A stretch of DNA of 64,000 nt from an uncultured bacterium (GCA_966112615.1 CBHWDO010000012.1:22004-86003), one strand, 5' to 3'. Positions 5,789 to 26,877 are shown, numbered from the stretch's first letter. Numbers and translations: made by a program. Notes: generated by a model from the sequence alone, not told the origin.

Positions 5789-7225
5789 TCATTCAAATAA
5801 GTCTTCCATTTTCACTTCTGCCACAATTCTTCCTGTATAATAAACATTTTGCTTAGTTCCATACGTGGTGACCATTGTAGGGAAAATCGTCTTCCTGGTT
5901 TTTGTTTTCTCCTGAAAAATTTTAGTCTTATTGTCTAGCTCATTTGCATATTTTTTATCAATACTGAATTCGCCGCTGGAAAATTTGATTTCACATAGAT
6001 TGATGCAATGATCGGCCCGGTCAAGCAGAAGATCCACCTGTGCACCTTTATCACCATCTTTCGGAGAATATCGCCATGCTGATGCTTCAGTATATACGCC
6101 TGCAATACCCAGGGCTTTTTTTATTTGATGTACATGTTTTAAACAAACTGCTTCAAAAGCATAGCCGCTCCAACTATTATATGACTGACCTTCGGCAATC
6201 TTATGCCAGGTTCCTGTTCCTGTAGCACGCACCCGATCAACAAACTTCAGGTAGAAAAGTGAGTATTCGTCGGAGAGTTTATAAATACTGTCTCTGGCTG
6301 TCTTTTCAAAGGGAATGTATTGCGTAATGAAACCCGACTGTTCAAGTTCCTCGAACAGGCGAGTTGTAGTGCCACCGGTAGTAAGCCCGCACATTTCCAG
6401 TAGTTCAGCCCGTGTCATTCCACCGGGTTTTTTAGCAAGTGCACGTACTATTGCCTCGTGATGACTGGCATTATCGAATAAGGATCGGTAAAGAATTCTA
6501 AACTCTGTTTTAAGCATCCCATTCTTTTCAAAGAATAGTTTATCAATGATCTGATTAGCGCTTTGTCCTTTCTCTACCTGCTTTAAATATTGTGGAATGC
6601 CGCCCATGGCCATATAGAGCTGGAGGAGTTGGTAATGATCTAGTTTAATTCCCCTGCTTATAAGATAATCTTTCGACTCCTTCAAGGTAAAAGGAAATAA
6701 TTGAATAGTTCGCGTTACGCGATTATGCAAGCCCCCCTTATTATGAAGAATATTCTCAATCATCCAGGAGGCAGCAGAACCACAGATCACTACTTTCAGT
6801 TGTGGCTGACGTGATGCCCAGGTGTTCCACCAATGGCCGAATGCTGTTAAGAATCCGGATTTAGGTGTATGTATCCATGGGAATTCATCAAACAACACAA
6901 CTGCATGCTGATTGGCTAATTTTGAAGTGAGAAAGTCACTGAGAAATGAAAAAGCCTGTATCCAGTTTTCAGGGACTGCCAACGGGATCGTTGATTGCAT
7001 AGCTTGCTGCAAGGAGCGACTGAAATTGGAAAGTTGTTCTGACAACCCTGATTCATGAATTCCGGTGCATTCAAATACAAGATTCTTTTGATAATAATTG
7101 CGGACCAGGAAAGTCTTTCCCACACGACGACGTCCCAATATTGCAATCAGCTCTGCTTCCCTGGAACTTAATGCATCCTTAAGGATCTTCTTTTCTGTCT
7201 CCCTGCCTATAATGTTTTCAGACAT
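5789..7225 (-). CDS. AAA-type ATP-binding protein (Arch_ATPase N-terminus + DUF234-like C-terminus)
   Basis: It has a Walker A motif (GRRRVGKTF), a Walker B-like motif (VVLFDEF), and a C-terminal winged-helix/DUF234-like region. I prefer the internal start MSENIIGRETEKK (7225) over the ORF-track start at 7291. Confidence 0.8.
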   Translation of the reverse strand: MSENIIGRETEKKILKDALSSREAELIAILGRRRVGKTFLVRNYYQKNLVFECTGIHESGLSEQLSNFSRSLQQAMQSTIPLAVPENWIQAFSFLSDFLTSKLANQHAVVLFDEFPWIHTPKSGFLTAFGHWWNTWASRQPQLKVVICGSAASWMIENILHNKGGLHNRVTRTIQLFPFTLKESKDYLISRGIKLDHYQLLQLYMAMGGIPQYLKQVEKGQSANQIIDKLFFEKNGMLKTEFRILYRSLFDNASHHEAIVRALAKKPGGMTRAELLEMCGLTTGGTTTRLFEELEQSGFITQYIPFEKTARDSIYKLSDEYSLFYLKFVDRVRATGTGTWHKIAEGQSYNSWSGYAFEAVCLKHVHQIKKALGIAGVYTEASAWRYSPKDGDKGAQVDLLLDRADHCINLCEIKFSSGEFSIDKKYANELDNKTKIFQEKTKTRKTIFPTMVTTYGTKQNVYYTGRIVAEVKMEDLFE

Positions 7226-7340
7226 ATTTATGGACAAGTATAATTTTCTATAATCGTCCACAAATATATTAAATATGACAGTTATGGACAATTATAAAAT
7301 TTCAAAGCTGTCCACAACTTATTTAAATTGGCACATTACC

Positions 7341-7994
7341 CTACCGCTTAATAACCCTTCCACTACCCTGCTGAACCACTTCAAGCATTGGATTACCAAC
7401 ATAGTAAACATTCCCACTGCCATATATATCAGCCTTAATCCGGTCAGAAACATCAATACTTATATCACCACTTCCGTGAATACTTGCATTAACCTGTGAT
7501 GCAGGAGAACTTAATGTATTAATATTTCCACTACCATAAATGTCAAGTGCCAAAGTTTGAAAGGCACAATTTTCAATCTTTATATTACCGCTTCCATGAA
7601 TTCCAGCAAATAGAGCATTTCCTTCAAAACCATCAATAACAAGATTTTTACTTCCATGAATTGTTGCCTTATTGATAGAAGGAATAGAAATGGTTGCAAT
7701 CACATTTCCATTTCTTACACTTTCATACTTCGAATCAAATTTCATTTTTAAAACGCCATTCACAACCTGGAAATCAAGCGCATTCAACAGGTTTTCATAT
7801 CCTGATACCGAAACAGAGGGTGTAGTTCCATAAGTGATGGTTGCTCCAATATCATAGTGACTTTCAACAGCAGAAAATTCAGGCAAATTCAATGTTCGTG
7901 TGCCAGTACTTCCTCCACCACGTAATACATCTTTCGTACAGGAAGCAAATACAATAACAAAGGCAAGGAGACCCGACATGATAACTTTTTGCAT
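7341..7994 (-). CDS. DUF2807 / head-GIN-domain lipoprotein (putative adhesin-like beta-helix)
   Basis: The lipoprotein signal is MQKVIMSGLLAFVIVFASC. Repeated GSGN/GSGD motifs (HGSGNI, YGSGNI, HGSGDI, YGSGNV) are typical of DUF2807. I chose the start at 7994. Confidence 0.75.
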   Translation of the reverse strand: MQKVIMSGLLAFVIVFASCTKDVLRGGGSTGTRTLNLPEFSAVESHYDIGATITYGTTPSVSVSGYENLLNALDFQVVNGVLKMKFDSKYESVRNGNVIATISIPSINKATIHGSKNLVIDGFEGNALFAGIHGSGNIKIENCAFQTLALDIYGSGNINTLSSPASQVNASIHGSGDISIDVSDRIKADIYGSGNVYYVGNPMLEVVQQGSGRVIKR

Positions 7995-8097
7995 GAGATA
8001 AGGTTTCAGCAAAACTATTCCATGCAACAAATTTTACATTACCGTACAATGATGCAAATTTCCGGATATCAATATTTACAAATCATTTAGAATGTTA

Positions 8098-8128
8098 TAA
8101 AAAAAGAAAGCGGCTCATAGGCCGCTTC
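8098..8128 (-). terminator. Intrinsic terminator downstream of the T9SS cargo gene
   Basis: The stem 8108-8114 / 8121-8127 (aagcggc / gccgctt) has a 6-nt loop. An A-run at 8098-8105 on the plus strand gives a U-tail on the minus strand. Confidence 0.65.
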
Positions 8129-8135
8129 CTCATTA

Positions 8136-10211
8136 CTATTTTACAAACCGCTTATTGATAATTGATGGTCCATTAATTTGCACATTGTATACACCAGGAT
8201 TCAAATTACCTATATCGATCCTGATCTGTGTTTGACTACTACTCAATTTCCTTGAAGTTATCAGTTGTCCATTCATTGAATAAATGGTCAATAATGATGC
8301 ATTCTTTGGAAGATTATCGACGGAAAGTATATTACCCCTTATAATCATTTTCAAAATATTTGCCGAAGTAATCTTCTTAATAGTACTGTATTGAATTTTG
8401 CCATCCACATCAACTGACCTGATCCTGACGTATACAATATTATCATTGACAACTTTTTTTGAGTAATCATTCTGACCTGCCGCATTCATTGCCGGAACCG
8501 TTCCTGCTGCCTCCCATGTCTGCTGATCAATGCTTTTCTCAATGATATATTTGTCAACCTGCTTTTCATCAGCAGTTGTCCATAATACTGTAAGGAGGTT
8601 ATCTTCTTCTTTCAGGTTGAATGAAATAAATCTCACCGGAAGACCAGAACAGGTAGTAAGTGGAGCTGCTACAAAAGCTTCTGAACTTCTATATGAACCA
8701 TCACCTCCCCGGGTGGCGCCATTTGGAGGAAATTCAGTGAGTGATGAAGAACTTGTTGTTCCATTATTTCCTCCGGTAATTGCATTAGAGACAGATCCCG
8801 ATGAAGGAGCCGAAATACTTCCACCACCTCCTCCACCTCCGGGACCTTCAGCTTCTGCTGAGGTGATTGGCTGATTACCTCCGGCACCACCGGTTGCGGA
8901 TACAGTTACTCCTGTGATAGCACCAGAAATGTTCAGCCGGATGGCACCACCACCTCCGCCTCCACCCGGAGCGTCATTTAGGGTGTTATTTGAATTGACC
9001 CCAGCAGAACCATTGGCCTGTATGGAGCCGGATCCGCTTAGGGTACCAGTCCCTAATATATAAATAATTCCACCACCATTTCCTCCTGCACCTCCCGAGC
9101 TGTTGTTGGCATCTCCGGCACCACCACCGCCTCCAAGAAATAATGTATTGCTTGAGTAAGCCAGGGGTCTGCCACCTTTACCACCCACGTTCTGCCGGTT
9201 ATCACCTCCCCAAGTGGTATTTCCAGGAGCTACAGTTCCTGCATTTTGATTATTAGCACTATAGGTGTACCCACCCCTTCCACCACCTGTAGAAGTTGAA
9301 GTTGAGAAACTGCCTCCTTCAAGATTCCATGTGGTAGCATAGCCTGCTACCGGATTACCGTTTCCGGTCCATGATGCAACATTTCCAAAATTTGCACCTC
9401 CTCCTCCACCAGCATTATGACCATTTCCACCGCCACCGCCATTGGCCGCAGCACCACGATTATATCTTCCACCAAGCGCATCATACCTGACCTGGTCGCC
9501 TGCAATTCCTTCTCCTTTCTCTGCGCCGGTTGAACTGTTATTGGAAACATATGCTGTAACAACAGCACCTCCTGCGGTCGAAGTGTTATTATCAATAGCT
9601 CCACCCCTGAATCCTCTTCCGGTAACCACCATGGATCCGTTATTGACAACATTACCATTGACTTCAATGGCCAGTACACCACCAATGGTTCCATTCCATG
9701 GAGAACAGGTAAGTGAAGCACCGCTGTTTGTGGTTAGCGCATTAAGCCTGGGAATTCTGATTACCTGGACCTTTTCGTTTGCTGTTACTGAATAGGAGTT
9801 TGCGAATGAATTACAAATACTGATGGTATTTCCTGAAACGCCGCTTACTACTGCAATTTCATAAGTACCTACTCCATTAAGGTTTGTTATTGCACCATAC
9901 GAAGCATCATTGGTTGTAGTAATGCTTGCCCCCTGCATTTTTATGACCATGATGAGATCACCGTAGGCAATTGTACTGGTCGCATAAGGATTGTTTGCTC
10001 CGGCAGCACCTCCATTCAGATCTGCAATGTTCGTTACAGTGGCCATATTGGTTCCTGAAGTAATAGATGAAGCCAGTGAAGTATACCGGTTCCAGATAAT
10101 ATTGGTCCCTGTAACAGTTTCAGCACCATCTTTTCCAGGTTGTGAAAATACCAGGCAGGGTGCAAGGATCAACAAAAATAGCAGTGACCTTACGCGTGAA
10201 GGATAAATCAT
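8136..10211 (-). CDS. Glycine-rich secreted protein with a T9SS type-A C-terminal sorting domain
   Basis: It has a signal peptide and poly-Gly runs (GGGGGNGHNAGGGGGANFG, PGGGGGGGAIRL, GPGGGGGGGSIS). The C-terminal ~80 aa (LLTIYSMNGQLI...GVYNVQING...) matches the Por/T9SS CTD pattern. Confidence 0.8.
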   Translation of the reverse strand: MIYPSRVRSLLFLLILAPCLVFSQPGKDGAETVTGTNIIWNRYTSLASSITSGTNMATVTNIADLNGGAAGANNPYATSTIAYGDLIMVIKMQGASITTTNDASYGAITNLNGVGTYEIAVVSGVSGNTISICNSFANSYSVTANEKVQVIRIPRLNALTTNSGASLTCSPWNGTIGGVLAIEVNGNVVNNGSMVVTGRGFRGGAIDNNTSTAGGAVVTAYVSNNSSTGAEKGEGIAGDQVRYDALGGRYNRGAAANGGGGGNGHNAGGGGGANFGNVASWTGNGNPVAGYATTWNLEGGSFSTSTSTGGGRGGYTYSANNQNAGTVAPGNTTWGGDNRQNVGGKGGRPLAYSSNTLFLGGGGGAGDANNSSGGAGGNGGGIIYILGTGTLSGSGSIQANGSAGVNSNNTLNDAPGGGGGGGAIRLNISGAITGVTVSATGGAGGNQPITSAEAEGPGGGGGGGSISAPSSGSVSNAITGGNNGTTSSSSLTEFPPNGATRGGDGSYRSSEAFVAAPLTTCSGLPVRFISFNLKEEDNLLTVLWTTADEKQVDKYIIEKSIDQQTWEAAGTVPAMNAAGQNDYSKKVVNDNIVYVRIRSVDVDGKIQYSTIKKITSANILKMIIRGNILSVDNLPKNASLLTIYSMNGQLITSRKLSSSQTQIRIDIGNLNPGVYNVQINGPSIINKRFVK

Positions 10212-10345
10212 GTGTGATGGGTTTACTCAAAATTAATGGTATACCCCTAGAAGGATCTAAGCGTTTAACAGATAAATTATTTTATTATATAGAGTGAATA
10301 CTTTTTAAAATGCACAACTCTCTCAAGCATCTCTTGCTTTTTTAG

Positions 10346-13300
10346 TTATTTATTAAATGGCTGATCTAAGGAATGCCAGCCTAATTTTCGATAAGATTCA
10401 AATTGTGCTTCATCATAGAACTGGTCGGCTGTTGATTGGTGGGGGAAAAAAGCATTCTTCTTTTTATACTCACGAAGGTCAGTGGATTCATCACCTGTAA
10501 GACAGGCTTTTACATAAATTAAAATTCCTGAAGGTTGCATTTCCCCGCCGTATCTTATAGTACCATATATAACATGGACTTTTTTATCATGAAGAATTTT
10601 ATCCATGGGAATATTAATGACTGCTCCAAAATCAATATAGCAACGCCTGATGGCATTAGCCAGCCCCTCACATATCTCATTTGGATCCTCCTCTGCATCA
10701 CTTAATAAAATGTATTTGCATCTTCTGCGTATCAATTCATAAATACCCATGTTGTCAAAATGTCCACCATCAGAAAGACATACATATTCTGAATTGGTGT
10801 TTGATTTTCCAAGTAAATCCTGAATGAGATAGGCGATACCAAAATAAGGATCACTACTCCTCCATTTATCAAGCCTGGGATTCCCAATCCACCACCCAAG
10901 TCTGACATTAAATATGGTAAGCAGAAATGCAGTACCCGGAGATGAATGATAACCCATATTTGGATTGACGGCTGCACCTGAAATTGCCATGGCAGTCCCT
11001 AAGGTTGGTCCTTCTTCATAGGCATAACTTTCTGTAGGTCGGTACCCATAATCAAATGAATTATTTTTATTAAAGGCTGCAGACCTGGTAGGACTAACAT
11101 CAAACCCGCAAAATAGAGGACTGAAGATAAACGATTCAGCTTTTCTATCCTGACGATCCAGATCAGAAACCACCGAACAATTCAACGATGTATTGATAAG
11201 AGGATAAGGTCCATAATATTTTTGCATTGGCCGGAACAATTTCAAATGATGGTCATCCAGGTCATCAAACCCTGTAAACGGGTTCGCAGACCTGCTTCTT
11301 TCAGGCCTTCTTCTAACTGCTCCAAGAAAAGCTCTTATCAATCTGTTACGATAAAAATAATGGAGTGAGAATTCGTTTACTCCAATCCTGCATCCAAGAA
11401 AAATTATGACTCCGCAAAGCAGCAACCAAACAAGGAATTCTTTCAAGAGGTTTGGTCCGCTAAACAAACTTTCTTTAACAGGGCCGGTAATTATCGAACA
11501 CAGGATAATGAATCCACCCATAAATAAATAGGGTGCAAACCGTATGAATATTTCCTTGACAGGAACTCCCTTAACAGGATTGGAAGAGGAAGAATTGTAT
11601 GCCATCTTAACTGCAAGGCCCACTATGGTAATCCATGTGATGCCGGAAGGTATCAGGATCTCATTGTTAATATGGATGATCCATTTATGCAAAACAAAGA
11701 CAGCAAGATTGATGATGATCCAGTTCAACGACAATCGATGAAAAATACCTCCCATTTTACCCCACCACTCCCGTCTTCCATCTGGAAAATAATTGCCCAT
11801 AACAGCCATCCTGCTTACAATTACAATGGCATAAATTTCAAGGATAGCCGGAGGTCCGAAAATGAACCAGAAGTAACAATTCAGCAATTGATAAATTGTT
11901 TCGTAGTGCTCATATAAATAGATAACAAGTGCCAACAACGCATGTCCTATTAAAGCGGCTATAATCGATGAAATGAATAATAATACAAATCCCTTTAAAC
12001 GTAAGGATGCGGAATTCCAATGTTCATAATATTTTCCAATCATCGCAGTGAAAAACAAACAACAAAAGCCAGCAATTCCTATAATCCTGGTTGATTGAAA
12101 TATATCCCAGTATGATTGACGATCATCCTCCACAATAGTGATCATTAATGAAATAACCATTGCGCTTAGGAAGCAGTAGGAAAGGAAAATAGAAGTAAAG
12201 AATTTGCTCCTTCCAAAATTTAAAAAGTACAGGGCTGAGCTGTTTTGATTAAACATATGCATTCCTATCCCAGCTACAATGCTGGCAGGGATCTGTAGCA
12301 ACACTGAAGTCCAAATCACCTGTGATAAACCAGCGTGGATCTCGAGATACTCAGACCATTGTTCCCAACTTTTATTGAATAAAAAAAGAAATACCAGGCC
12401 AATAGATGCCAGTAGAATCAGGATTATAAGGTTGATGATCGTATTTCTTAACCAGGTCATTCCCATTGTCCAGGCATCAGCAGACATAATGGAAACATTT
12501 GGAGTAAGGTAGTTGCTATACATCCGAAGCCAGCGTACGGGCCTGACTTCTTCACCCATTGGATCGGCGGATTTAGTTATATTAAGTCTTTTCGTTACTT
12601 TATCAACTGACCCCGACTCTTTGATCCAGGAAATAAACCACGAACCGATGTATCCACCACCTGATACAGTTGACAGGTAATCTACGTATCTCAGAATATC
12701 ATATTCTGCAAGTTTTTGAAGTACTCCCAGGTTAAAGGTAGCCGAACGGATTCCTCCCCCGGAAAAGGCGACTCCAAAAAGATTCATGGATGCTGATTTT
12801 TCATAAGGAGATTCGAACTGGCCCATTTTACCATTAGTAACATCATTTTTTATGGTAGATATAAGGTTATTGAACGACTGGCTATTACCCTGAAGACTCA
12901 TTACATTATTGCTGTGAACTCTTTTCCCGGGCTCTTCTTTTTGAATTGTTTTTACCCGAATCATTCGGCTCTCACTAATATCTTTCAATTCATCTTCAAA
13001 AAAAGATTCAAATGGAATAGCATTACTATTGGAAATCAAACCAGGTACCCATGAACTCCTATTAACAAGCATTTCTTTTGCAATTTCAGATCGCATTTTA
13101 TTATGGATAGTGCTCTTCCACCATCTTTCATTAAACTTCTTATCTACTTTATTCAGCATATTATCCTCACTCAGTATATTCCAAACCTGGATAACTCTTT
13201 GCTTCCTCAATGACAATTTATTAGCGCCAAGACAATAGATGATCTGAACAGGCATATAAAATAATGCATCGCATAACGGAAGGCAACTGGAAGAATTATG

Positions 13301-13693
13301 ATATAATTCACGGCTGATCAATAACCTCCAGTAGTTAGGAGCATAATTAAGGCTGGAAGATTCGTAGGGAAATTTTTCAAAAAGTATATCCCGATTAGAA
13401 GAAATATTCTTTTCCAGCCAATTCATTAAAGAACTGGATATACTGGTAAATAGGGATTGAAATGTATTAGAATATATTTGAGGTTGTGTAGCGAATACCA
13501 GGTCTTTTAACCTTGTTTCAAGTACCGAATCCAACTCATACTGATGTTTAATAATGCGATAAGCGTCCCACAATTCAATATGCTCCTCATTAAGTTTACC
13601 GGAATCTTCCAACCCAAGGTGATACTTCACATAATCCTGGATAAAACTTATATAAGATACTGCATGAGCAGTAAGGTCTAATACCAAGTCCAT
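10346..13693 (-). CDS. Large cPLA2/patatin-like phospholipase with an inserted polytopic membrane domain
   Basis: The oxyanion motif is FSGGGIRS. The nucleophile elbow TVSGGG lies about 32 aa later, which is cPLA2-like spacing. About 10 hydrophobic helices follow over roughly aa 415-770. The catalytic Asp motif SDGGHFDNMG lies near aa 985. The N-terminal ~300 aa match no motif I recognise. Confidence 0.8.
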   Translation of the reverse strand: MDLVLDLTAHAVSYISFIQDYVKYHLGLEDSGKLNEEHIELWDAYRIIKHQYELDSVLETRLKDLVFATQPQIYSNTFQSLFTSISSSLMNWLEKNISSNRDILFEKFPYESSSLNYAPNYWRLLISRELYHNSSSCLPLCDALFYMPVQIIYCLGANKLSLRKQRVIQVWNILSEDNMLNKVDKKFNERWWKSTIHNKMRSEIAKEMLVNRSSWVPGLISNSNAIPFESFFEDELKDISESRMIRVKTIQKEEPGKRVHSNNVMSLQGNSQSFNNLISTIKNDVTNGKMGQFESPYEKSASMNLFGVAFSGGGIRSATFNLGVLQKLAEYDILRYVDYLSTVSGGGYIGSWFISWIKESGSVDKVTKRLNITKSADPMGEEVRPVRWLRMYSNYLTPNVSIMSADAWTMGMTWLRNTIINLIILILLASIGLVFLFLFNKSWEQWSEYLEIHAGLSQVIWTSVLLQIPASIVAGIGMHMFNQNSSALYFLNFGRSKFFTSIFLSYCFLSAMVISLMITIVEDDRQSYWDIFQSTRIIGIAGFCCLFFTAMIGKYYEHWNSASLRLKGFVLLFISSIIAALIGHALLALVIYLYEHYETIYQLLNCYFWFIFGPPAILEIYAIVIVSRMAVMGNYFPDGRREWWGKMGGIFHRLSLNWIIINLAVFVLHKWIIHINNEILIPSGITWITIVGLAVKMAYNSSSSNPVKGVPVKEIFIRFAPYLFMGGFIILCSIITGPVKESLFSGPNLLKEFLVWLLLCGVIIFLGCRIGVNEFSLHYFYRNRLIRAFLGAVRRRPERSRSANPFTGFDDLDDHHLKLFRPMQKYYGPYPLINTSLNCSVVSDLDRQDRKAESFIFSPLFCGFDVSPTRSAAFNKNNSFDYGYRPTESYAYEEGPTLGTAMAISGAAVNPNMGYHSSPGTAFLLTIFNVRLGWWIGNPRLDKWRSSDPYFGIAYLIQDLLGKSNTNSEYVCLSDGGHFDNMGIYELIRRRCKYILLSDAEEDPNEICEGLANAIRRCYIDFGAVINIPMDKILHDKKVHVIYGTIRYGGEMQPSGILIYVKACLTGDESTDLREYKKKNAFFPHQSTADQFYDEAQFESYRKLGWHSLDQPFNK

Positions 13694-13704
13694 AATTATG
13701 ATGT

Positions 13705-15048
13705 TTATCTTTTATTGAATTCAATGAACTTCGTGAGATCAAATTTTTTAGACAGTGCAAGAGATACATATGGTCTATTGTCTTTTTTAAGTAGTCCTCT
13801 GACTTCTCCCGTAAAGGCAATTCCATAGTTTTCTTCGTTTAAACGGAATTGAATTACATAAAACGGGGACCATTTTCTAATGGGAAGTTCATACTTTAAA
13901 GGATTGAGATCGTATACAGACTTAGCACGTAAATATTGCTCGGTAGGTTGTGAAGTAATTCCTGCAACAGTATTGATAAATAAATGAACAATATTACCAT
14001 TAACTGTTTCCTTGAAGAAAATAGGTAATCCAGCACCAAAGTAATGTGACCGAATATCAGTCTCTCTTTTTACAGTTTTATTGAAATATTGATCATTCCC
14101 TAAAACATCGTTAATAGGCAAGGTATCTGTTCTTAGAATGGAAATGTTTTCAAAATCCAGTTCTTCATTGACTCTTTGCCATTGCAATTCCGCCCATCCT
14201 GAAACAAATACATGTAATCCATCCTGGTTTGCAGACCGTCCGGTAATTCGGAATTGAGGAGAAAAAAACAATCCAACATTTCTAACAGTTATTCTTTTTA
14301 TTCGAGACCCAATCGCTTTATACACTTTTAAAAATTCCTGGTCAGGAATAACTGATGTGGTGTCATAGTATGTTCTTAGCGCCAATGGTTCTTCAACCTG
14401 ATCTGTCAAAGTTTTTGATTCAAAAACACCAGCAAATACACCCAATCGATTGGAACCTGAATTACTTTTTATTTTTTCGATATCCCGCTTATAAAAGAAA
14501 ACTCCTGAGAAAAAATTATTTGGTTGTAGCCCATCTACAAGATCAAAGTTAGAACCCACTTCAATCCAAAACGATTTATTACGGTCGTACGCTCCAATGG
14601 TAGTGACCCGAATTTCAATGTTTCCATCTTTCTCTACTGTATAATTAGAATCATCCGGCTGCTTCAAGGATAGATAAATAATTTCATCAAACCCAAATGA
14701 ATCAACAGACTTGTACTCAATATTAACAGGAATTTCCACGGTAATTTCCATTCCATCAGCAGGCCATTGATTTCCGTTCAATATTATTCTATCCATTGTT
14801 AATTTAAGACCAATAGCAGAGGGCCGGGGCATTTCCAGAACAGGCTGAAGAATAATATCCTGAGCTGGTTTTGCACCACTAAGCTTTAATGTTAGCTTTA
14901 CCTGTTCTTTGGATTGTATGGAAAGGCTATTAAGAGAGGGCCTGATTAAATGTCGATCGTTAACAATGCTAATTTTTTGTCCTTCTGCGAACTTAAAGAT
15001 CAATAAAAATAAAATGGTCATTTTGACCTGAGTTACAATATGCTTCAT
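13705..15048 (-). CDS. Secreted hypothetical protein, predicted outer-membrane beta-barrel with an N-terminal beta-sandwich-like region
   Basis: The signal peptide is MKHIVTQVKMTILFLLIFKFAEGQ, so I chose the start at 15048. The C-terminal ~300 aa show repeated amphipathic strand patterns (LGVFAGVFES, VGLFFSPQFRIT, YGIAFTGEVRG, YVSLALSKKF). The stop lies 11 nt upstream of the patatin gene start, which suggests an operon. Confidence 0.55.
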   Translation of the reverse strand: MKHIVTQVKMTILFLLIFKFAEGQKISIVNDRHLIRPSLNSLSIQSKEQVKLTLKLSGAKPAQDIILQPVLEMPRPSAIGLKLTMDRIILNGNQWPADGMEITVEIPVNIEYKSVDSFGFDEIIYLSLKQPDDSNYTVEKDGNIEIRVTTIGAYDRNKSFWIEVGSNFDLVDGLQPNNFFSGVFFYKRDIEKIKSNSGSNRLGVFAGVFESKTLTDQVEEPLALRTYYDTTSVIPDQEFLKVYKAIGSRIKRITVRNVGLFFSPQFRITGRSANQDGLHVFVSGWAELQWQRVNEELDFENISILRTDTLPINDVLGNDQYFNKTVKRETDIRSHYFGAGLPIFFKETVNGNIVHLFINTVAGITSQPTEQYLRAKSVYDLNPLKYELPIRKWSPFYVIQFRLNEENYGIAFTGEVRGLLKKDNRPYVSLALSKKFDLTKFIEFNKR

Positions 15049-15250
15049 AAAAGTTGGTTTGCGCCTACTCTGAAATGGTTTTCGGCATTCCCCATAACTG
15101 TAAATTTTCAGTTTTGAAAGCAACGGGTAAAGAGGAAAAGGAAGGATTCAAAAAGGGTGTTTTTCCTGTTTTTGATGAGGTTTATCCTGAAAGCGACGTG
15201 AACTATTGCAAAAGAATACCAGGATAAATAGTTTAGGGGAAAACCATTTT

Positions 15251-16090
15251 ATGAAGAAGTCATTTTCAGTAATTTTTATTCTGCTACAATTTGTTTTCCC
15301 GGGAAATGGACAAAATCTGCAACAAGATCTTGAGTCAATTTTAAAGCATTCATGCCTACATTATGTAGAACCTACAGACAGGGAGAAATACCTTAAAAAT
15401 TATAATAACCTTTACCGTACAATTGACTCTTCCGTTCACACCAGCCATATAGATTTTCCTGTGAGTTATATTAAATTCATGGCGAAGTTTTATGAAGACA
15501 ATCAAGATTACGATGGACTAAGAATAAACATGGGTAATTTCTATCGTAATCCCCATGATCAGGATAAAAAACAGATCATGTTGATGTTTTCACCTACAAG
15601 AGATAAGATTGCAGATTCTACAGCATTCAAACATTACAGAAAACAAAAACTAAATAAACAGGAGTTTAGAAAAATTGATATAAATCCATTGTATGAAGGA
15701 AATAAGAAAAAGAACAGGCATTTCATAACACATGGTGCGTACAAGTTTAATAAATATAAAAAAGCATATAGAAAAAACTATCTCAATTCATGTCTCTATA
15801 CAACTTCAATGTTTATTTGTAAGGATAATATTTTTCTACTAAACAAATTGTTCCTGGACAAACCCGAATATGATAAAATAAGATTTGAATTCATTTCTTA
15901 TAACGAAATTAAGGTTGATAGTCAATGCAGTCCATATCAGATATCCTTATTACTTACTCCTGTAAAAAACGGAAATCCAGATCCTGCAGTTTTAAAAACA
16001 TATGTATCAGATGCATCAAAAAATAAGGTGCAGGATATCAGCATTTTAAGTATCAACCATGGAGAATTATGTCCTTTTAAATGTAATTGA
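15251..16090 (+). CDS. Secreted Lys/Asn-rich, Cys-containing hypothetical protein
   Basis: The signal peptide is MKKSFSVIFILLQFVFPGNGQ. I recognised no family. It is the first gene of a tightly packed four-gene plus-strand cluster. Confidence 0.5.
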   Translation: MKKSFSVIFILLQFVFPGNGQNLQQDLESILKHSCLHYVEPTDREKYLKNYNNLYRTIDSSVHTSHIDFPVSYIKFMAKFYEDNQDYDGLRINMGNFYRNPHDQDKKQIMLMFSPTRDKIADSTAFKHYRKQKLNKQEFRKIDINPLYEGNKKKNRHFITHGAYKFNKYKKAYRKNYLNSCLYTTSMFICKDNIFLLNKLFLDKPEYDKIRFEFISYNEIKVDSQCSPYQISLLLTPVKNGNPDPAVLKTYVSDASKNKVQDISILSINHGELCPFKCN

Positions 16091-16093
16091 CAC

Positions 16094-16741
16094 ATGATTC
16101 AGCTAACACCTACATTAATTATAGAATTTGCAGCATTAATATTTGCATGGAGCAATTATGGGCGATTAAAAAAGGGTCGATTAAGAACACTACCATATTT
16201 TTTATTATTTATATGCATGGTAGAGGTCACAGGAAATATCATAAAAAATTCTAATTCTCAAAATGCCCTATTGTATAATATCAGTACGCCAATAGAATAT
16301 TCATTTTACCAATTGCTTTTTTTCCTTCATTTAAATAATAAATTTTTTCCCAGAATTTTTATTTTATTTCTGTGGTTGATTAGTGTTGTAAATTTTTTTC
16401 TTCAACCAGCACATGATGTTCATTTTTATGTTCTATGGGTTGGCAGTATTGAAGTAATATTTTTGTGCTGCTATTATATATATGAACAATTTATTGATGA
16501 AGAAAGCGATAAAGTATTGTACAAAAATTATTTCTTCTGGATAGTAGCAGGATTACTTCTTTTCAATTTAGGGGAGGCAATTTTCTTTGGATTTTATAAA
16601 TTCATGGACAATGGTCAAAGGGAGATATTTGGTCCTTTGTTTTCTGCTATAAACAATAACCTGCTACTGGTACTTTATTTCTGTTTTATCATTAGTATCC
16701 TTACGTATTCCAAATTCAACAAGCCGGTTTATGCCCAATGA
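16094..16741 (+). CDS. Polytopic (about 6 TM) membrane protein of unknown family
   Basis: The sequence is dominated by hydrophobic helices. It starts 3 nt after the previous gene, and its last 11 nt overlap the start of the kinase gene. Confidence 0.55.
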   Translation: MIQLTPTLIIEFAALIFAWSNYGRLKKGRLRTLPYFLLFICMVEVTGNIIKNSNSQNALLYNISTPIEYSFYQLLFFLHLNNKFFPRIFILFLWLISVVNFFLQPAHDVHFYVLWVGSIEVIFLCCYYIYEQFIDEESDKVLYKNYFFWIVAGLLLFNLGEAIFFGFYKFMDNGQREIFGPLFSAINNNLLLVLYFCFIISILTYSKFNKPVYAQ

Positions 16742-17501
16742 ACTAAAGCTTTATATTATTCTGTTTGTCATTGCATTCCTTCTGCTGGGGTTATTCATTT
16801 TATCCTTATCTATTCTTCATTCAAAAAAAGCATTATCACACAAAAAAGAAAGAGAACTTTTGCAACAACAATATGAATCTCTTTTACTCCAAAGCCAGAT
16901 AGAGATCCAGGAGCAAACCATGCAACAGATCAGCCGTGAGCTTCATGATAATTTGGGACAGATAGCAAGCCTGGTTAAAATCCATCTTAATACCATAGAA
17001 CCCAGTAATCCCAAGCAGGTTGAATATAAAGTATCAGAAGCGAAAGGTCTTTTAATTAGCCTTATACAGGATCTAAAAAATTTATCCCGTGCTTTAAATG
17101 GACATCATCTTCATCAATACGGATTTGAATCGGCCTTGAGGGAAGAAATTGAAAAAATCAACAAAACAGGTGTATTTAATGCTGTTTTTAAAAGCTCAGG
17201 AGAATCTAACGATATTGAAAAAGATAAGGCCATCATACTTTTCAGAATGGTCCAGGAAATCCTGAATAATACAATAAAGCATAGCATGGCGGAAAATATT
17301 GTTCTTTCCTTTTCATCCAATAAAAATTTTATTACATTAGATATAAGTGACGATGGTATTGGATTTGACAAGATTTTGGTTAAGGGGAATGGGTCGGGCT
17401 TAAATAATCTTTATAGCAGGGCCGAACAAATAAATGCAGTCCTTACCATTGATTCACACCCTGGAAACGGAACAGCAATATGCATCAAACTACCACTTTA
17501 A
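16731..17501 (+). CDS. NarL-type (HisKA_3) sensor histidine kinase with one TM helix and no evident sensor domain
   Basis: It has a single N-terminal TM helix, the H-box RELHDNLGQ, and HATPase motifs (NNTIKHS, DDGIGF, GSGLNNL). Confidence 0.85.
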   Translation: MPNELKLYIILFVIAFLLLGLFILSLSILHSKKALSHKKERELLQQQYESLLLQSQIEIQEQTMQQISRELHDNLGQIASLVKIHLNTIEPSNPKQVEYKVSEAKGLLISLIQDLKNLSRALNGHHLHQYGFESALREEIEKINKTGVFNAVFKSSGESNDIEKDKAIILFRMVQEILNNTIKHSMAENIVLSFSSNKNFITLDISDDGIGFDKILVKGNGSGLNNLYSRAEQINAVLTIDSHPGNGTAICIKLPL

Positions 17502-17507
17502 CTGCCT

Positions 17508-18176
17508 ATGCCAGCGCCGGGGAAAACAATCAAACTTGCTTTGGTTGATGATCATAAATTATTTCGAAAAGGAATGATCAGCCTTATTAATTCCGTTGGA
17601 AATGAATTTGAAATTTTATTTGAAGTAGATAATGGCATCCAACTAAAAAATATTCTTTCAAAAGATAATTCTCCCGATATTATTTTGATGGATGTGAATA
17701 TGCCATTCATGAATGGTGTTGAGTGTGTTGAATGGTTAAGCCAGAACCATCCTCTTGTAAAAGTGCTCATTGTCAGTATGATTGAAAAAGAAGAAACAAT
17801 TGTTCAAATGCTGAAATTGGGTGTCAAAGGGTATATTAGCAAGGATGTTGAACCTCATGAACTGGCAGAGGCGCTTCACTCCATTGTAAATAAAGGATAT
17901 TATTTTACAGACTTTATCACCGGAAAACTGGTTCACTCTCTTCAACTTGAGAATCAAAATGGCAAGTCAAATGGTTCAGTACCATTTACAGACAGGGAAT
18001 TAAGTTTTCTGAAACTGGCCTGCACAGAAATGACTTACAACGAAATTGCCAGTTCTATGTATTTAAGTCCTAAAACCATAGACGGTTATCGTGATGCCTT
18101 ATTTGAAAAATTAAAGGTCAAAAGCAGAATAGGTCTGGTACTTTATGCAATTAAAAATGGAATAGTTCAAGTTTGA
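17508..18176 (+). CDS. NarL/LuxR-family response regulator
   Basis: It has a REC domain (LVDDH...DIILMDVNMPFMNG) and a C-terminal GerE/LuxR HTH (LSPKTIDGYRDALFEKLKV). It starts 6 nt after the kinase gene. Confidence 0.9.
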   Translation: MPAPGKTIKLALVDDHKLFRKGMISLINSVGNEFEILFEVDNGIQLKNILSKDNSPDIILMDVNMPFMNGVECVEWLSQNHPLVKVLIVSMIEKEETIVQMLKLGVKGYISKDVEPHELAEALHSIVNKGYYFTDFITGKLVHSLQLENQNGKSNGSVPFTDRELSFLKLACTEMTYNEIASSMYLSPKTIDGYRDALFEKLKVKSRIGLVLYAIKNGIVQV

Positions 18177-19371: not shown

Positions 19372-20412
19372 TTAGCTTAATGACTTTGTTGAATTTCTTA
19401 TTATGAGCCTTGCTTCCAAAACTTCTTCCACAGGCGCTTTTTCGGTATAAGGAACCGCAATCCTTTCTAATAATATCGTGATCAACTGCTCCGCAATTCT
19501 ACTCATCGGCTGTTCAATAGCCGTGATCGAAGGTGAATTCAATTGAAACACATCATGATCATCAAAAGATATGACTGCAATATCTTTTGCTATCTTCAAT
19601 CCCATACTCCTGATCGCTTTCAATCCGCTTACACCAATATAGTTTGTTCCGAAAATGACTGCATCCAGTGAAGGCTTGCGTTTGAGATAAGCAGTGATAT
19701 GCTTCTCTATCTCCGATCCCTCTGTTGAAGCCACATAGGTTAGCTCTTTTAATTGCGTATTCAATCCGGCTTCTTTCATCGCTCTTTCATATCCATTCAA
19801 ACGCTCCTGCATCTGCCATTGCAATGAATTCAATGTTATAAAAGCGATCTCTTTATAACCCGCATCAATCAAATGTTTGGTGGCATTGTAAGTGCTCTGC
19901 TCATTGTCTATCACCACAACATCACAATCTACCCCACTCAGCTTCCTGTCGAATAATACAACCGGGTTTCCTTCGCTGATCAACGCATTGACTTCCTCTT
20001 CCATTCCCTCTGAAGGTGTAATGATATAGCCATCAACATGTCGCTCGCGATACATATTGATCAGCTCTTTGGATTTTTCCGCATCATTATCATTACTGGA
20101 ATAGATGATCTTGTAGCCACTCCGATATGCTTTGTCTTCGATCATTCTTGCAATGTTTGCAAAGAATGGATTCGAAATATCTTCGATCATCAGTGCGAGG
20201 ATATTCGTTTTACCCGTGCGCAGACTTCTTGCAAGAGAATTTGGTTTGTAACCTGTTTGCTGGATGAACTTCTCCACTTTCTTCACCACTTCTTCACTCA
20301 CACGCATTTCCTTGGCCTTTCCATTCAACACAAACGATACAGCTGTGGCAGAAATGTTCAGTTTCTGAGCAATATCTTTAATGGACATTTTCTTAGCCAC
20401 AGCTGTAATCAA
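19372..20412 (-). CDS. LacI-family transcriptional regulator
   Basis: The N-terminal HTH is MSIKDIAQKLNISATAVSFVLNG, followed by a periplasmic-binding-protein-like sugar-binding core. The true start may be the internal Met at 20388. Confidence 0.9.
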   Translation of the reverse strand: MITAVAKKMSIKDIAQKLNISATAVSFVLNGKAKEMRVSEEVVKKVEKFIQQTGYKPNSLARSLRTGKTNILALMIEDISNPFFANIARMIEDKAYRSGYKIIYSSNDNDAEKSKELINMYRERHVDGYIITPSEGMEEEVNALISEGNPVVLFDRKLSGVDCDVVVIDNEQSTYNATKHLIDAGYKEIAFITLNSLQWQMQERLNGYERAMKEAGLNTQLKELTYVASTEGSEIEKHITAYLKRKPSLDAVIFGTNYIGVSGLKAIRSMGLKIAKDIAVISFDDHDVFQLNSPSITAIEQPMSRIAEQLITILLERIAVPYTEKAPVEEVLEARLIIRNSTKSLS

Positions 20413-20424
20413 TTTGGGTTTGAA

Positions 20425-22713
20425 TTATTTCGACTCGTTGGTTAGTGAATATGGAACATCGGATGAGTTCACACCGCGATTTTTATTTGGCTGGGCCGAC
20501 ATATTGAAAAGTATCGTTCCACCTTTCAACATCTCCGGATGACTCAGCCAGTTTTTCGTCAATGGTTTTCCATTGAAACTTACGCTAATGATATACCTGT
20601 TCTTATCACTGTTCTGCGGAGCCTTAATGGATAATTTATTTCCATTTTCGAGCTGCAAGGTAATACTTTTAAACAGCGGTGCACCCATAACATATTGATT
20701 AACTCCGGGTGTTACCGGGTAGAATCCCATAGCCGAAAACACGTACCAGGCCGATGTTTGACCATTATCCTCATCCCCGCAATATCCATCCGGAGTGGCC
20801 ATATACATCCGGTTCATGGTTTCCCTTACCCAATACTGTGTTTTCCAAGGCTCCCCTGCATAATTGTACAGATAGATCATATGCTGGATCGGCTGGTTTC
20901 CATGGGCATACTGTCCCATATTCGCGATCTGCATTTCACGGATCTCATGGATCACACCACCATAATAACTGTCGTCAAATACCGGCGGAAGTTCGAAAAC
21001 TGAATCCAGCTTCTTTACAAAGTTTTGCTTGCCACCCATCAGGTTGATCAGTCCCTGCACATCATGAAACACAGACCATGAATAATGCCAGCTGTTTCCT
21101 TCGGTGAAAGCATCGCCCCATTTGAATGGATTGAATGGCGACTGGAAACTTCCATCCTTATTCTTTCCTCTCATCAATCCTGTTGAAGGATCGAAAAGAT
21201 TTTTATAATTCAAACTTCTTTTGCGATACAATTCCACTTCTTCTTTCGGCCTGTTCAATGCTTTTGCCAACTGGTAGATCGTGAAATCATCGTAAGCATA
21301 TTCCAGCGTGCGCGCCGCATTTTCATTCAAACCAATATCATAAGGAACATACCCTAATTCATTATAGTACTTCACTCCTGCCCTACCGGTTGCGGTATTC
21401 GGACCTGAATTATTTGCACCATGAAGCAATGCTTCATACAAGGTATTGATATCATATCCACGAATACCTTTGATATAAGCATCACTCACTACAGAAGCGG
21501 AGTTATTACCCACCATGATATCTGCATAACCCGGGCTCGACCATTCAGGCAACCATCCACCTTCTTTATAATCACTGATCAGTCCCTGCTGCATTTCCTT
21601 GTTGATACCGGGATAAACAAGGTTCAGGAATGGATACAATGCACGGAAAGTATCCCAAAAGCCTGTGCCCGCAAACTTGTATCCAGGCTCGGTTTTACCG
21701 GTATGCGGACTGTAATGCACGATCTTGTTGTTGGCATCCAGTTCATATAATTTATTCGGGAAGAAAAGCATGCGATACAGACAGGAATAGAATGTGCGCA
21801 TCTGGTCGATGGTACCACCTTCAGCCTTTACCTTACCCAACTCCTGGTTCCATCTTTTCTTTGCAGCATCACGTGTCTGGTCGAAACTCTGATTAGCCAG
21901 TTCACGGCTCAGGTTCAATTCAGCCTGCTCAAAACTGATGAAAGAAGTGGCAACACGCAGGTTCACTTTCTCATCTTCATTCGTTTTGAATCCAACGATC
22001 GCTCCGCTGTGATCAGCGGTCATTTCAAGCTTATCCTTCGCTGCAGTATTTCCACTCCAGGTGTATCCAACAGTGAATGGTTTATCGAAATAAATAACGA
22101 AGTAATTCTTGAAATTAGGTAATGGACCACGTGCATACTTGGTAGAGTATCCAATGATCTTTTTCTCTTCAGGGATTACTTTGATATAAGAACCTTTATC
22201 AAATGCATCTACCACAACAAATGAACTATCATTCTTCGGATAAGTGATCCTGAATTGAGCAGCTCTTTCTGTTGGTGTAATCTCAGTTGTTACATCATGA
22301 TCGGCGAGATACACACTATAATAATAAGGCTTCGAAACTTCAGCCTTGTGTGAGAACCAGCTCGCACGCTCATCCTGGTTAAATCTTGCTTTACCAGTAA
22401 GTGGCATAATAGCAAATTGTCCATAATCATTCATCCATGGAGAAGGCTGGTGTGTTTGCTTGAAACCCCTGATCTTATCAGCATCATAACGGTACATCCA
22501 TCCATCACCCATGTTTCCGGTTTGCGGACTCCAGAGATTCATACCCCAGGGCACTCCGATGGCAGGATAGGTATTACCGTTAGATAGACTTGGCTTGGAA
22601 GCCGTACCCATTAAAGGATTCACCCACTCCACAGGATCTGATACGGTATTCACCATTTGTGTGAATGCACTTTGTGCAAGCAACACGAGTAAGCCGGTCA
22701 TTAATTTTTTCAT
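20425..22713 (-). CDS. GH92 alpha-mannosidase
   Basis: It has a signal peptide and GH92 blocks (NGNTYP, SHEQA-like FISFEQA, GDEDNGQTSAWYV, GNQPIQHMIYLYNY). Confidence 0.9.
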   Translation of the reverse strand: MKKLMTGLLVLLAQSAFTQMVNTVSDPVEWVNPLMGTASKPSLSNGNTYPAIGVPWGMNLWSPQTGNMGDGWMYRYDADKIRGFKQTHQPSPWMNDYGQFAIMPLTGKARFNQDERASWFSHKAEVSKPYYYSVYLADHDVTTEITPTERAAQFRITYPKNDSSFVVVDAFDKGSYIKVIPEEKKIIGYSTKYARGPLPNFKNYFVIYFDKPFTVGYTWSGNTAAKDKLEMTADHSGAIVGFKTNEDEKVNLRVATSFISFEQAELNLSRELANQSFDQTRDAAKKRWNQELGKVKAEGGTIDQMRTFYSCLYRMLFFPNKLYELDANNKIVHYSPHTGKTEPGYKFAGTGFWDTFRALYPFLNLVYPGINKEMQQGLISDYKEGGWLPEWSSPGYADIMVGNNSASVVSDAYIKGIRGYDINTLYEALLHGANNSGPNTATGRAGVKYYNELGYVPYDIGLNENAARTLEYAYDDFTIYQLAKALNRPKEEVELYRKRSLNYKNLFDPSTGLMRGKNKDGSFQSPFNPFKWGDAFTEGNSWHYSWSVFHDVQGLINLMGGKQNFVKKLDSVFELPPVFDDSYYGGVIHEIREMQIANMGQYAHGNQPIQHMIYLYNYAGEPWKTQYWVRETMNRMYMATPDGYCGDEDNGQTSAWYVFSAMGFYPVTPGVNQYVMGAPLFKSITLQLENGNKLSIKAPQNSDKNRYIISVSFNGKPLTKNWLSHPEMLKGGTILFNMSAQPNKNRGVNSSDVPYSLTNESK

Positions 22714-22733
22714 CCTTGATTGACTTATGTTGA

Positions 22734-24995: not shown

Positions 24996-25053
24996 GAGCA
25001 AAAAATTTAAAAAAGCTACCTGCACTGCTGCAGGTAGCTATCACCCACAATCA

Positions 25054-26859: not shown

Positions 26860-26877
26860 AATAAGATTGTTGTTCGA

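Follow-up and report, generated by a model that had tools for sequence, protein, structure and literature searches.

The 64,000-nucleotide (nt) stretch of DNA from an uncultured bacterium analysed here (GCA_966112615.1 CBHWDO010000012.1:22004-86003; its whole length is called the window below) encodes a lipase, LipA, and, directly upstream of it, a partner protein. Analysis of the two uncovers, on the one hand, a very large and previously unrecognised family of membrane-integrated cPLA2-like enzymes and, on the other, a small new family of beta-barrel proteins which specifically accompanies membrane-anchored lipases. Known enzymes of the patatin/cPLA2 class are soluble and dock onto membranes; the ten-helix bundle that appears to be built into the catalytic domain of LipA would represent a different solution to substrate access and regulation. 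As to function, the pair could consist of an inner-membrane phospholipase under regulation and a barrel linked to it in the envelope, the two forming a self-inflicted membrane-disruption module, a reading which we favour while giving it somewhat less than an even chance.

A cPLA2-like hydrolase with a divided catalytic domain

A preliminary description of this locus had picked out the motifs SGGGIR, TVSGGG and SDGG in the 1115-residue product of the lipase open reading frame (ORF), and had proposed a cPLA2/patatin-like lipase, divided by about ten transmembrane helices between its catalytic serine and aspartate, with a nucleophile elbow deviating from the canonical GxSxG; each of these points is upheld by the comparisons reported here. 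The motifs occupy residues 311-316, 342-347 and 974-977, with Ser344 lying 33 residues past Ser311, and in an alignment of 58 homologs S311-G314, R316, S341-G347 and S974-G977 are all invariant. Among 238 family members drawn from several phyla, GGGIR is found in 236, TVSGG in 227 and SDGGHF(D/E)N in 223, and the spacing from the Ser to the Asp has a median of 665 residues and a minimum of 556. Relative to the canonical elbow, the Ser and the second Gly are invariant in the family and the first Gly is a Thr; the motif counts indicate that this Thr-for-Gly elbow is real and a signature of the family. Together with the spacing they show that the elbow and the membrane insertion alike are family traits rather than quirks of the gene in the window.

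The division of the domain is also reflected in profile searches, in which Pfam, NCBIfam and PADLOC-DB 2.0 were run on both the lipase and the partner. The Pfam Patatin model (PF01734) matches residues 309-368 of LipA with 29.2 bits against a cutoff of 27.7 (E 1.3e-6) and covers only positions 2-59 of its 191, a confinement to the first profile positions which is expected if the domain is interrupted soon after the nucleophile; NCBIfam and PADLOC returned no match to the lipase. A further profile search gave a marginal match to cPLA2 with the full profile (E 0.0066), placing Ser344 opposite Ser228 of 1cjy. When a profile of the two catalytic halves stitched together was compared with solved structures, only weak matches to VipD and cPLA2 were obtained, the former aligned at its GGGxK/GxSxG segment and, below threshold, at its catalytic DGG (ADGGILDNM versus SDGGHFDN).

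The AlphaFold2 model of LipA, built from the 58-sequence alignment, has a mean predicted local distance difference test score (pLDDT) of 81.2 and a predicted template-modelling score (pTM) of 0.82, the latter implying a confident relative placement of the domains. It consists of an all-alpha part (residues 3-303), a beta-alpha catalytic part (306-400), ten long helices (405-769) and an alpha/beta catalytic part (778-1108). A Foldseek search of the PDB with this model places human cPLA2 alpha (1cjy) and cPLA2 delta (5iz5) at the top, both with probability 1.00 and with 421-560 aligned columns, a span exceeding what the first catalytic half alone could supply; ExoU, patatin and VipD follow lower down. 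The expectation values are modest (best 7.6e-3), in keeping with a 1115-residue query of which two-thirds is non-homologous. The motifs and the model together provide good support for viewing LipA as a predicted Ser-Asp hydrolase of the cPLA2/patatin type.

Table 1. Coordinates of the genes, domains, motifs and neighbouring features discussed in the text (positions are those of the window unless another locus is named)
Feature	Locus	Coordinates	Strand	Basis or remark
Lipase gene lipA	window	10346..13693	-	1115 aa; ATG start; stop codon included
N-terminal all-alpha domain, residues 1-303	window	12785..13693	-	AlphaFold2 helices 3-303; block pLDDT mostly 80-94
Catalytic half 1, residues 304-404	window	12482..12784	-	Pfam Patatin match, invariant columns, cPLA2 profile alignment
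Oxyanion motif GGGIR, residues 312-316	window	12746-12760	-	
Ser344 in the nucleophile elbow TVSGG	window	12662-12664	-	
Ten-helix transmembrane insertion, residues 405-772	window	11378..12481	-	hydropathy, AlphaFold2, positive-inside bias
Catalytic half 2, residues 773-1115	window	10349..11377	-	FYRNRL block and SDGGHFDN
Predicted catalytic Asp975 in SDGGHFDN (974-981)	window	10769-10771	-	
Partner gene	window	13705..15048	-	447 aa; 438 aa if the start is 15021
Predicted signal peptide of partner, MKHIVTQVKMTILFLLIFKFAEG / QK	window	14980..15048	-	hydrophobic N-terminal segment
Partner N-terminal beta-sandwich, P0121 residues 15-139	window	14605..14979	-	DSSP: beta-strands only
Partner beta-barrel, conserved core of the family, P0121 residues 151-428	window	13738..14571	-	strands up to 35 residues
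lipA beside partner	window, L025, L052/53, L054			4 non-redundant loci
lipB beside partner	L026, L027/28, L032/33	L026 7371-9875; L027 7596-10076; L032 1784-4177		3 loci
GHSLG alpha/beta-hydrolase beside partner	L030/31, L036, L037, L041, L044, L045; distantly L035			7 loci
GHSLG family members	as named	L030 3296-4594; L036 2969-4312; L037 5815-7239; L041 2109-3491; L044 6918-8345; L045 2062-3462		
Hydrolase-caspase fusion beside partner	L040	6836-8626	+	1 locus; hydrolase of the GHSLG kind
Tle1-like DUF2235 lipase beside partner	L046			1 locus; CapV-like patatin on the other side
Full-length lipase homolog, Hymenobacter volaticus plasmid NZ_CP095064.1	L058	7656-11287		annotated as two hypothetical coding sequences (7656-10004, 10109-11287)
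Septu system	L052	5782-10656		PtuA E 1.5e-204; PtuB E 1.1e-78; with the patatin protein that follows
ThsB-like TIR protein	L034	2158-3552	-	near partner-family gene
PNP_UDP_1 phosphorylase-superfamily protein	L030	844-1905	+	near partner-family gene
Peptidoglycan-related genes	L058, L057, L026	L058 6721-7425; L057 8469-9128; L026 5157-5972		beside lipA or lipB
ATPase_2 and winged-helix protein	window	5789-7291	-	500 aa; PDC-S27 match, E 1.2e-204
DUF2807 protein	window	7341-8030	-	
Protein with AgmC_N-like N-terminal region and sorting domain	window	8136-10211	-	691 aa
Divergent four-gene cluster	window	15206-18176	+	
Polysaccharide-utilisation locus	window	19372-29982	-	

Topology and the N-terminal domain of the lipase

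Kyte-Doolittle hydropathy over 19-residue windows detects ten strongly hydrophobic segments within residues 419-772, and the ten modelled helices of this block span residues 405-453, 456-481, 497-518, 536-552, 562-600, 605-635, 638-675, 677-700, 712-742 and 748-769. Averaged over the 58 homologs, lysines plus arginines number 21.5 in the loops on the catalytic side versus 7.6 on the opposite side; further, LipA has no signal peptide and its predicted periplasmic loops are 8-17 residues long. The even helix count, the positive-inside bias and the missing signal peptide argue that both catalytic halves are cytoplasmic and lie at the face of the inner membrane, which agrees with the earlier proposal of an active site at that membrane. 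Of the accompanying suggestion that a polytopic domain replaces the lid, the part that is shown is the insertion of this domain between the Ser and the Asp. On these predictions, the assignment of LipA as an integral inner-membrane enzyme with a cytoplasmic active site is well supported.

The N-terminal region of about 300 residues, for which the preliminary description had recognised no motif, indeed goes unrecognised by Pfam and NCBIfam; its model is all-alpha. Local phmmer comparisons find it in 128 of 253 family members, specifically those of Bacteroidota; when residues 1-300 served as the sole query there was no match, not even to the protein itself, so that this search is uninformative. 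Within this domain the segment PFExxxxxELxxIxxSR (residues 226-243) is conserved more widely than the rest. The role of the domain is presumed to be regulatory.

Comparison with cPLA2 and the bacterial patatins

The closest solved structures, the group IVA alpha (1cjy) and group IVD delta (5iz5) cPLA2s, have in common with LipA the Ser-Asp dyad and an SGGGxR oxyanion/phosphate-binding motif with its conserved arginine, as well as a large insertion between the Ser and the Asp, which in cPLA2 is the cap. Unlike cPLA2, however, LipA has no C2 domain, its N-terminus being all-alpha and without any C2 match, and its insertion is predicted to be a ten-helix membrane bundle of about 370 residues as opposed to a soluble cap with a lid. 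The elbows likewise differ (TVSGG in LipA, GLSGS in cPLA2), and the bacterial protein would be permanently embedded in the membrane to which cPLA2 is recruited by Ca2+. Hence, while LipA resembles cPLA2 in its catalytic core, it is not a member of the group IV cPLA2 subfamily.

The bacterial patatins (PF01734), such as CapV, ExoU, VipD and the RssA type, contain the same GGGxR/K, xxSxG and DGG motifs, but are soluble, with approximately 150-200 residues between the Ser and the Asp, in contrast to the family median of 665 with ten predicted transmembrane helices. The likeness to CapV would extend to the target, as LipA could attack the inner membrane of its own cell from the cytoplasmic side. 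An assignment of LipA as a CapV-type effector of a cyclic oligonucleotide-based anti-phage signalling system (CBASS) was rejected, there being no match to the NCBIfam CBASS lipases or to PADLOC and no CD-NTase among the neighbours.

A large family with variable termini

A word-indexed search returns more than 7,700 homologs of the lipase, and an exhaustive search of representatives at 50% identity returns 17,531 clusters at E <= 1e-3 and 6,658 at E <= 1e-30, numbers which exclude chance as the origin of the observed architecture. The conserved core of the family corresponds to approximately residues 295-1110 of the query. Full-length relatives, including the N-terminal region of about 300 residues, are found in Mucilaginibacter, Pedobacter, Dyadobacter, Flavobacterium, Chitinophaga and Pontibacter, and relatives with the core only in Acidobacteriota, Variovorax, Acidiferrobacteraceae and Phycisphaeraceae. 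The core is additionally encoded by 44 plasmids or megaplasmids, from Rhizobium, Sinorhizobium, Cupriavidus, Methylobacterium and other bacteria, and in one case two lipase loci stem from a single metagenome-assembled genome. Neither the lipase nor the partner has a relative in 50,697 phage records, and the partner has none among the plasmids searched.

Members lacking the N-terminal domain bear other N- or C-terminal extensions. Many of those from outside Bacteroidota have a conserved C-terminal extension of approximately 300-400 residues (330-400 in P0265, P0296, P0232, P0334 and P0314) with the signature RWYPxS...LMENVYLDL...GWMNLFxHW..., and other distant members have polytopic N-terminal extensions; Pfam recognises no families in these alternative extensions. 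A full-length homolog on the Hymenobacter volaticus plasmid is annotated as two separate hypothetical coding sequences, and this copy is possibly frameshifted or split.

In the source annotations the family goes only by 'patatin-like phospholipase family protein', 'PNPLA domain-containing protein' or 'hypothetical', and the literature searched contains no description of it or of the partner family. It is a very large and coherent family without specific annotation, and not a characterised family of housekeeping lipases. Numbering tens of thousands of proteins from soil and plant-associated bacteria, it constitutes a considerable blind spot.

The partner, a predicted envelope barrel

The ORF upstream of lipA spans 13705..15123 (-), its likely start being the ATG at 15048 (MKHIV...), and the junction with the lipase gene reads ...AGA TAA acatcataatt ATG, so that the partner gene ends 11 nt before the lipase start, exactly as previously read. 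The same description had assigned to its product a signal peptide, a beta-sandwich-like N-terminus and a barrel. These features are recovered in the form of a hydrophobic leader, predicted from its sequence and from general knowledge of Bacteroidota signal peptides to be cleaved before a Gln, and of an AlphaFold2 model (pLDDT 87.6) with a beta-sandwich followed by an all-beta barrel, for which outer-membrane barrels are the only structural matches, albeit weak ones.

The partner family is small, with only 81 homologs of 247-774 residues. In an alignment of 36 of these sequences there are 32 invariant columns, all at residue 151 or later and hence in the barrel, including E154, N158, D160, D163, H270, D322, H326, R393, E396 and E406; the N-terminal sandwich varies among homologs in both length and sequence. 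The partner has no Pfam or NCBIfam match, and Pfam searches with the 36 homologs at E up to 1 returned stray matches and one PG_binding_1 domain, located at the N-terminus of a single homolog, a fusion which fits a periplasmic N-terminus of the partner. DUF5723 proteins have been reported as outer-membrane barrels, and one partner homolog carries this label in UniRef; hidden Markov models do not confirm the assignment, as, apart from the matches just mentioned, no Pfam model, DUF5723 included, matches any of the 36 members at E up to 1.

Foldseek against the PDB gives OmpT/Pla, autotransporter beta-domains and porins as the best matches, all of them weak. The omptins lead (E 3.8e-3 to 5.5e-3, probability 1.00), and the partner strands of up to 35 residues would, as in omptins, project beyond the membrane; the template-modelling scores (TM-scores) are, however, 0.43 or lower, the identity is 7-8%, the partner has an additional N-terminal beta-sandwich, and no omptin catalytic motif was identified in it. 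In a library of viral structures a model of 1010 residues without a name ranks first (E 3.3e-4, TM-scores 0.20/0.10); models encoded by phages and named 'outer membrane protein beta-barrel', which are generic barrels, come next. The C-terminus, ...KFIEFNKR, has an aromatic residue that is not terminal, as compared with the outer-membrane beta-signal, which ends in an aromatic. The partner can reasonably be regarded, on its modelled fold, as a barrel of the outer-membrane type, predicted to be Sec-exported and belonging to a previously undescribed family.

The coupling of a patatin-type lipase gene to one for a beta-barrel envelope protein recalls PlpD, a type Vd autotransporter that combines a patatin domain, a POTRA domain and a 16-strand barrel. 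By analogy, the barrel might export or display the lipase as a toxin against other cells, in a PlpD-like manner or by two-partner secretion, and a Tle1-like lipase, of a family known from type VI secretion system effectors, does occur in one partner locus. We nevertheless consider such a secretion role very improbable: LipA has no signal peptide and is polytopic, with ten transmembrane helices and a positive-inside bias that put its catalytic domain in the cytoplasm, the other hydrolases associated with partner genes likewise lack signal peptides, and the N-terminal domain of the partner is all-beta and not a POTRA domain. Moreover, lipase and barrel are separate polypeptides and most members of the lipase family have no such partner. 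A type Vd autotransporter in the strict sense is ruled out by the separate genes, the missing lipase signal peptide and the missing POTRA domain.

Association of the barrel family with serine hydrolases

It had been expected that the partner would be conserved beside homologs of the lipase, and this expectation fails. No partner homolog lies near the lipase in any of 24 representative genome loci, and the partner is likewise absent beside the closest relatives of LipA (P0002, P0003 and P0004) and beside P0104, the sister of a partner-linked member; in the Bacteroidota loci L001-L006 the gene upstream of the lipase is usually divergent. A simple conserved operon of lipase and partner, being found in 0/24 genomes, was rejected, and since the partner is missing beside most family members the lipase can evidently work alone.

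Viewed from the partner, the association is strong and broader than had been proposed. In a survey of 21 non-redundant partner loci with usable flanks, a serine hydrolase is directly adjacent on the same strand in 16, a frequency far above that of a random neighbour; the hydrolases are of at least four architectures (Table 1), and in 10 of the 16 loci the gap is 26 nt or less or the genes overlap. Four of these loci are non-redundant lipA-partner pairs, with spacings from an 8-nt overlap to a 19-nt gap; the partner precedes lipA in the window and follows it in the other three, and the pairs fall in three separate branches of a 118-sequence lipA tree. The repeated occurrence of one enzyme class beside the partner, irrespective of gene order, provides good evidence that the two are functionally linked. 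L049, considered as a further pair, was discarded, as no ORF underlies its weak partner match.

These data bear directly on the possibility that the lipase is complete in itself as a single-gene system, and that the barrel gene simply recurs near it in variable islands without being tied to it mechanistically. The missing partner in the 24 genome loci and beside the nearest relatives, the divergent upstream genes and the 5 of 21 partner loci in which no recognisable hydrolase adjoins the partner (L034, L038, L039, L042/43 and L051) would all be accounted for on this view. It is nonetheless quite unlikely in light of the four tightly spaced pairs in both gene orders and three tree branches, and of the 16 partner loci with their adjacent hydrolases. 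Rather, as this association shows, genes of the partner family repeatedly share operons with membrane-anchored lipases whose folds are unrelated, and the two genes work together.

Two of the associated hydrolases are themselves unannotated membrane hydrolase families exposed by this survey. The first, here called lipB, combines an N-terminal polytopic domain of 6-10 helices with a C-terminal patatin domain (EGGALRTG...GVSGG...DGG) that scores 24 bits with Pfam Patatin, below the cutoff; it has no BLAST similarity to lipA and is encoded right after the partner-family barrel. The second, the GHSLG family, comprises proteins of about 450 residues with a central hydrophobic segment and the motifs HGIGNQ and AGHSLGS, a lipase-type alpha/beta-hydrolase signature. 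Its gene always directly follows that of the barrel, and in L030, L036, L041 and L045 a gene for a small two-transmembrane protein comes next. The L030 member has no match in Pfam, NCBIfam or PADLOC, and none of five members tested has a credible Pfam match.

Possible functions of the lipase-partner pair

These observations can be combined into a tentative mechanism. The catalytic domain of the lipase would be made in two pieces, residues 304-404 with GGGIR and Ser344 and residues 773-1115 with Asp975, separated by the ten-helix bundle, and both would assemble on the cytoplasmic face with the active site against the inner leaflet. The bundle probably controls the access of phospholipid substrate, and the alpha-helical N-terminal domain, which is lineage-specific, probably holds the enzyme inactive pending a signal; without regulation, a lipase in such a position at the inner leaflet would be lethal, which makes the lineage-specific terminal domains its obvious candidate regulators. 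Once released, the lipase might break the inner membrane, with the barrel acting in the outer envelope as a trigger, an anchor or a component that breaches the outer membrane, and the module might serve phage defence or programmed lysis. A role in conflict or lysis, possibly in the form of abortive infection, is suggested by the patchy, multi-copy and plasmid-borne distribution of the lipase, by its variable terminal extensions and by the exchangeable hydrolase beside the partner. Certain neighbours point in the same direction, namely a Septu system with a patatin protein (L052), a TIR protein (L034), a caspase (L040), a match to the candidate model PDC-S27 and the peptidoglycan-related genes.

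Several observations, beyond the rarity of the partner beside the lipase, weigh against this disruption module. Neither protein matches any defence model of PADLOC-DB 2.0, and the cases of neighbouring defence genes are anecdotal. In Acidobacteriota and Proteobacteria the family is mostly surrounded by genes that look metabolic or unrelated, and the region of the window itself is an ordinary chromosomal stretch adjoining a polysaccharide-utilisation locus. The idea of a lysis cassette did not generalise and rests on three unrelated cases, as the three peptidoglycan-related neighbours, used as queries against all fetched loci, recovered only themselves. In structural terms, the short periplasmic loops of the lipase offer little contact surface for a periplasmic domain, and the matches of the partner to solved outer-membrane barrels remain weak (best E 3.8e-3, TM-score at most 0.43).

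An alternative is a role in envelope lipid homeostasis or remodelling, with LipA as a constitutive or stress-induced inner-membrane phospholipase or lysophospholipase and the barrel as an outer-membrane handler of lipids or fatty acids, either a channel or an enzyme like PagP, PagL, LpxR or OMPLA, their expression being controlled by the adjacent membrane-sensing two-component system. A very large family spread across phyla is what would be expected of a physiological enzyme, and many of the lipase neighbourhoods are metabolic; an ABHD18-like hydrolase abuts lipA in L008. The genes adjacent to the partner overwhelmingly encode lipases instead of nucleases or other effectors typical of defence; the invariant His, Asp, Glu and Asn residues of the barrel could form an active site; and HisKA_3/LuxR systems with a polytopic sensor are found close to the partner in the window and in L026, L035, L037 and L046. 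Yet the lipase is patchily distributed, even within groups of close relatives, and can be present in several copies or on plasmids; its terminal domains are highly variable, and a cytoplasm-facing phospholipase fixed in the inner membrane would be intrinsically dangerous. Further, some neighbours of the partner are caspase, TIR, PNP-type or Tle1-like proteins, and, the generic barrel fold aside, no similarity of the barrel to PagP, PagL, LpxR or OMPLA is detectable. On balance we regard a homeostatic role as somewhat improbable.

The membrane-disruption module admits of a more far-reaching version, which we likewise hold to be rather unlikely, wherein the barrel family defines a new two-membrane conflict or lysis system and the lipase with its transmembrane insertion is a widespread, unrecognised suicide effector (17,531 clusters). 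In such a system the conserved barrel with its fast-evolving periplasmic domain would sense or execute damage to the outer envelope, and an exchangeable hydrolase anchored in the inner membrane would act as the effector that destroys the cytoplasmic membrane of its own cell; the split transmembrane patatin, the patatin with N-terminal transmembrane helices, the GHSLG hydrolase with its two-transmembrane helper and the hydrolase-caspase fusion could all fill this position. If this were true, the cPLA2-like enzyme would rank among the most widespread suicide effectors yet to go unrecognised. More generally, a barrel family found beside lipases of four unrelated architectures could reveal how bacteria control lipases directed at their own membranes, with relevance to abortive infection, programmed lysis, vesicle formation and envelope lipid homeostasis.

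Gene neighbourhoods in related loci and in the window

Among the related loci, the complete Septu system of L052 lies directly downstream of a lipase-partner pair and is followed by a further patatin protein of 588 residues. The ThsB-like TIR protein and the PNP_UDP_1 protein each lie near a partner-family gene; TIR, caspase and PNP_UDP_1 domains are common as effectors in prokaryotic conflict systems. The peptidoglycan-related neighbours of lipA or lipB are an N-acetylmuramidase family protein, an Rv2525c-like glycoside-hydrolase-like protein and a PG_binding_1 protein, which are mutually unrelated.

In the window, no nucleotidyltransferase (CD-NTase), cyclic-nucleotide synthase or secretion system is found among the neighbours of the lipase. 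A scan of the operon for sigma-70 promoters and terminators gave counts no higher than in shuffled sequence, Bacteroidota promoters lying outside the coverage of the scan. Downstream of lipA, on the same strand and after a 134-nt gap, comes the gene for the 691-residue protein, which ends in a C-terminal sorting domain of the type IX secretion system (T9SS), and next the DUF2807 gene; neither recurs in related loci. The ATPase_2 and winged-helix protein, approximately 3 kb downstream of the lipase, matches the PADLOC candidate model PDC-S27 almost end to end.

On the other side, the divergent cluster encodes a secreted protein of 294 residues without an assigned function, a six-transmembrane protein of 215 residues, a HisKA_3 kinase of 256 residues and a LuxR-type response regulator, the HisKA_3/LuxR system itself spanning 16094-18176. 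The gene for the six-transmembrane protein overlaps the start of that for the kinase, which has no sensor domain of its own, and the two apparently form a split membrane sensor kinase; the pairs near the partner gene in the four other loci named above are comparable to this one. The G+C content is 0.33-0.37 over positions 12001-18000, which take in the 5' half of the lipase gene, the partner and the two-component cluster, as compared with 0.40-0.45 over most of the window, consistent with an acquired or variable island. Farther along lies the polysaccharide-utilisation locus, with a LacI-type regulator, two genes of the GH92 mannosidase family, SusD and a SusC-like TonB-dependent receptor; together with the T9SS signal it identifies the window as chromosomal Bacteroidota DNA.

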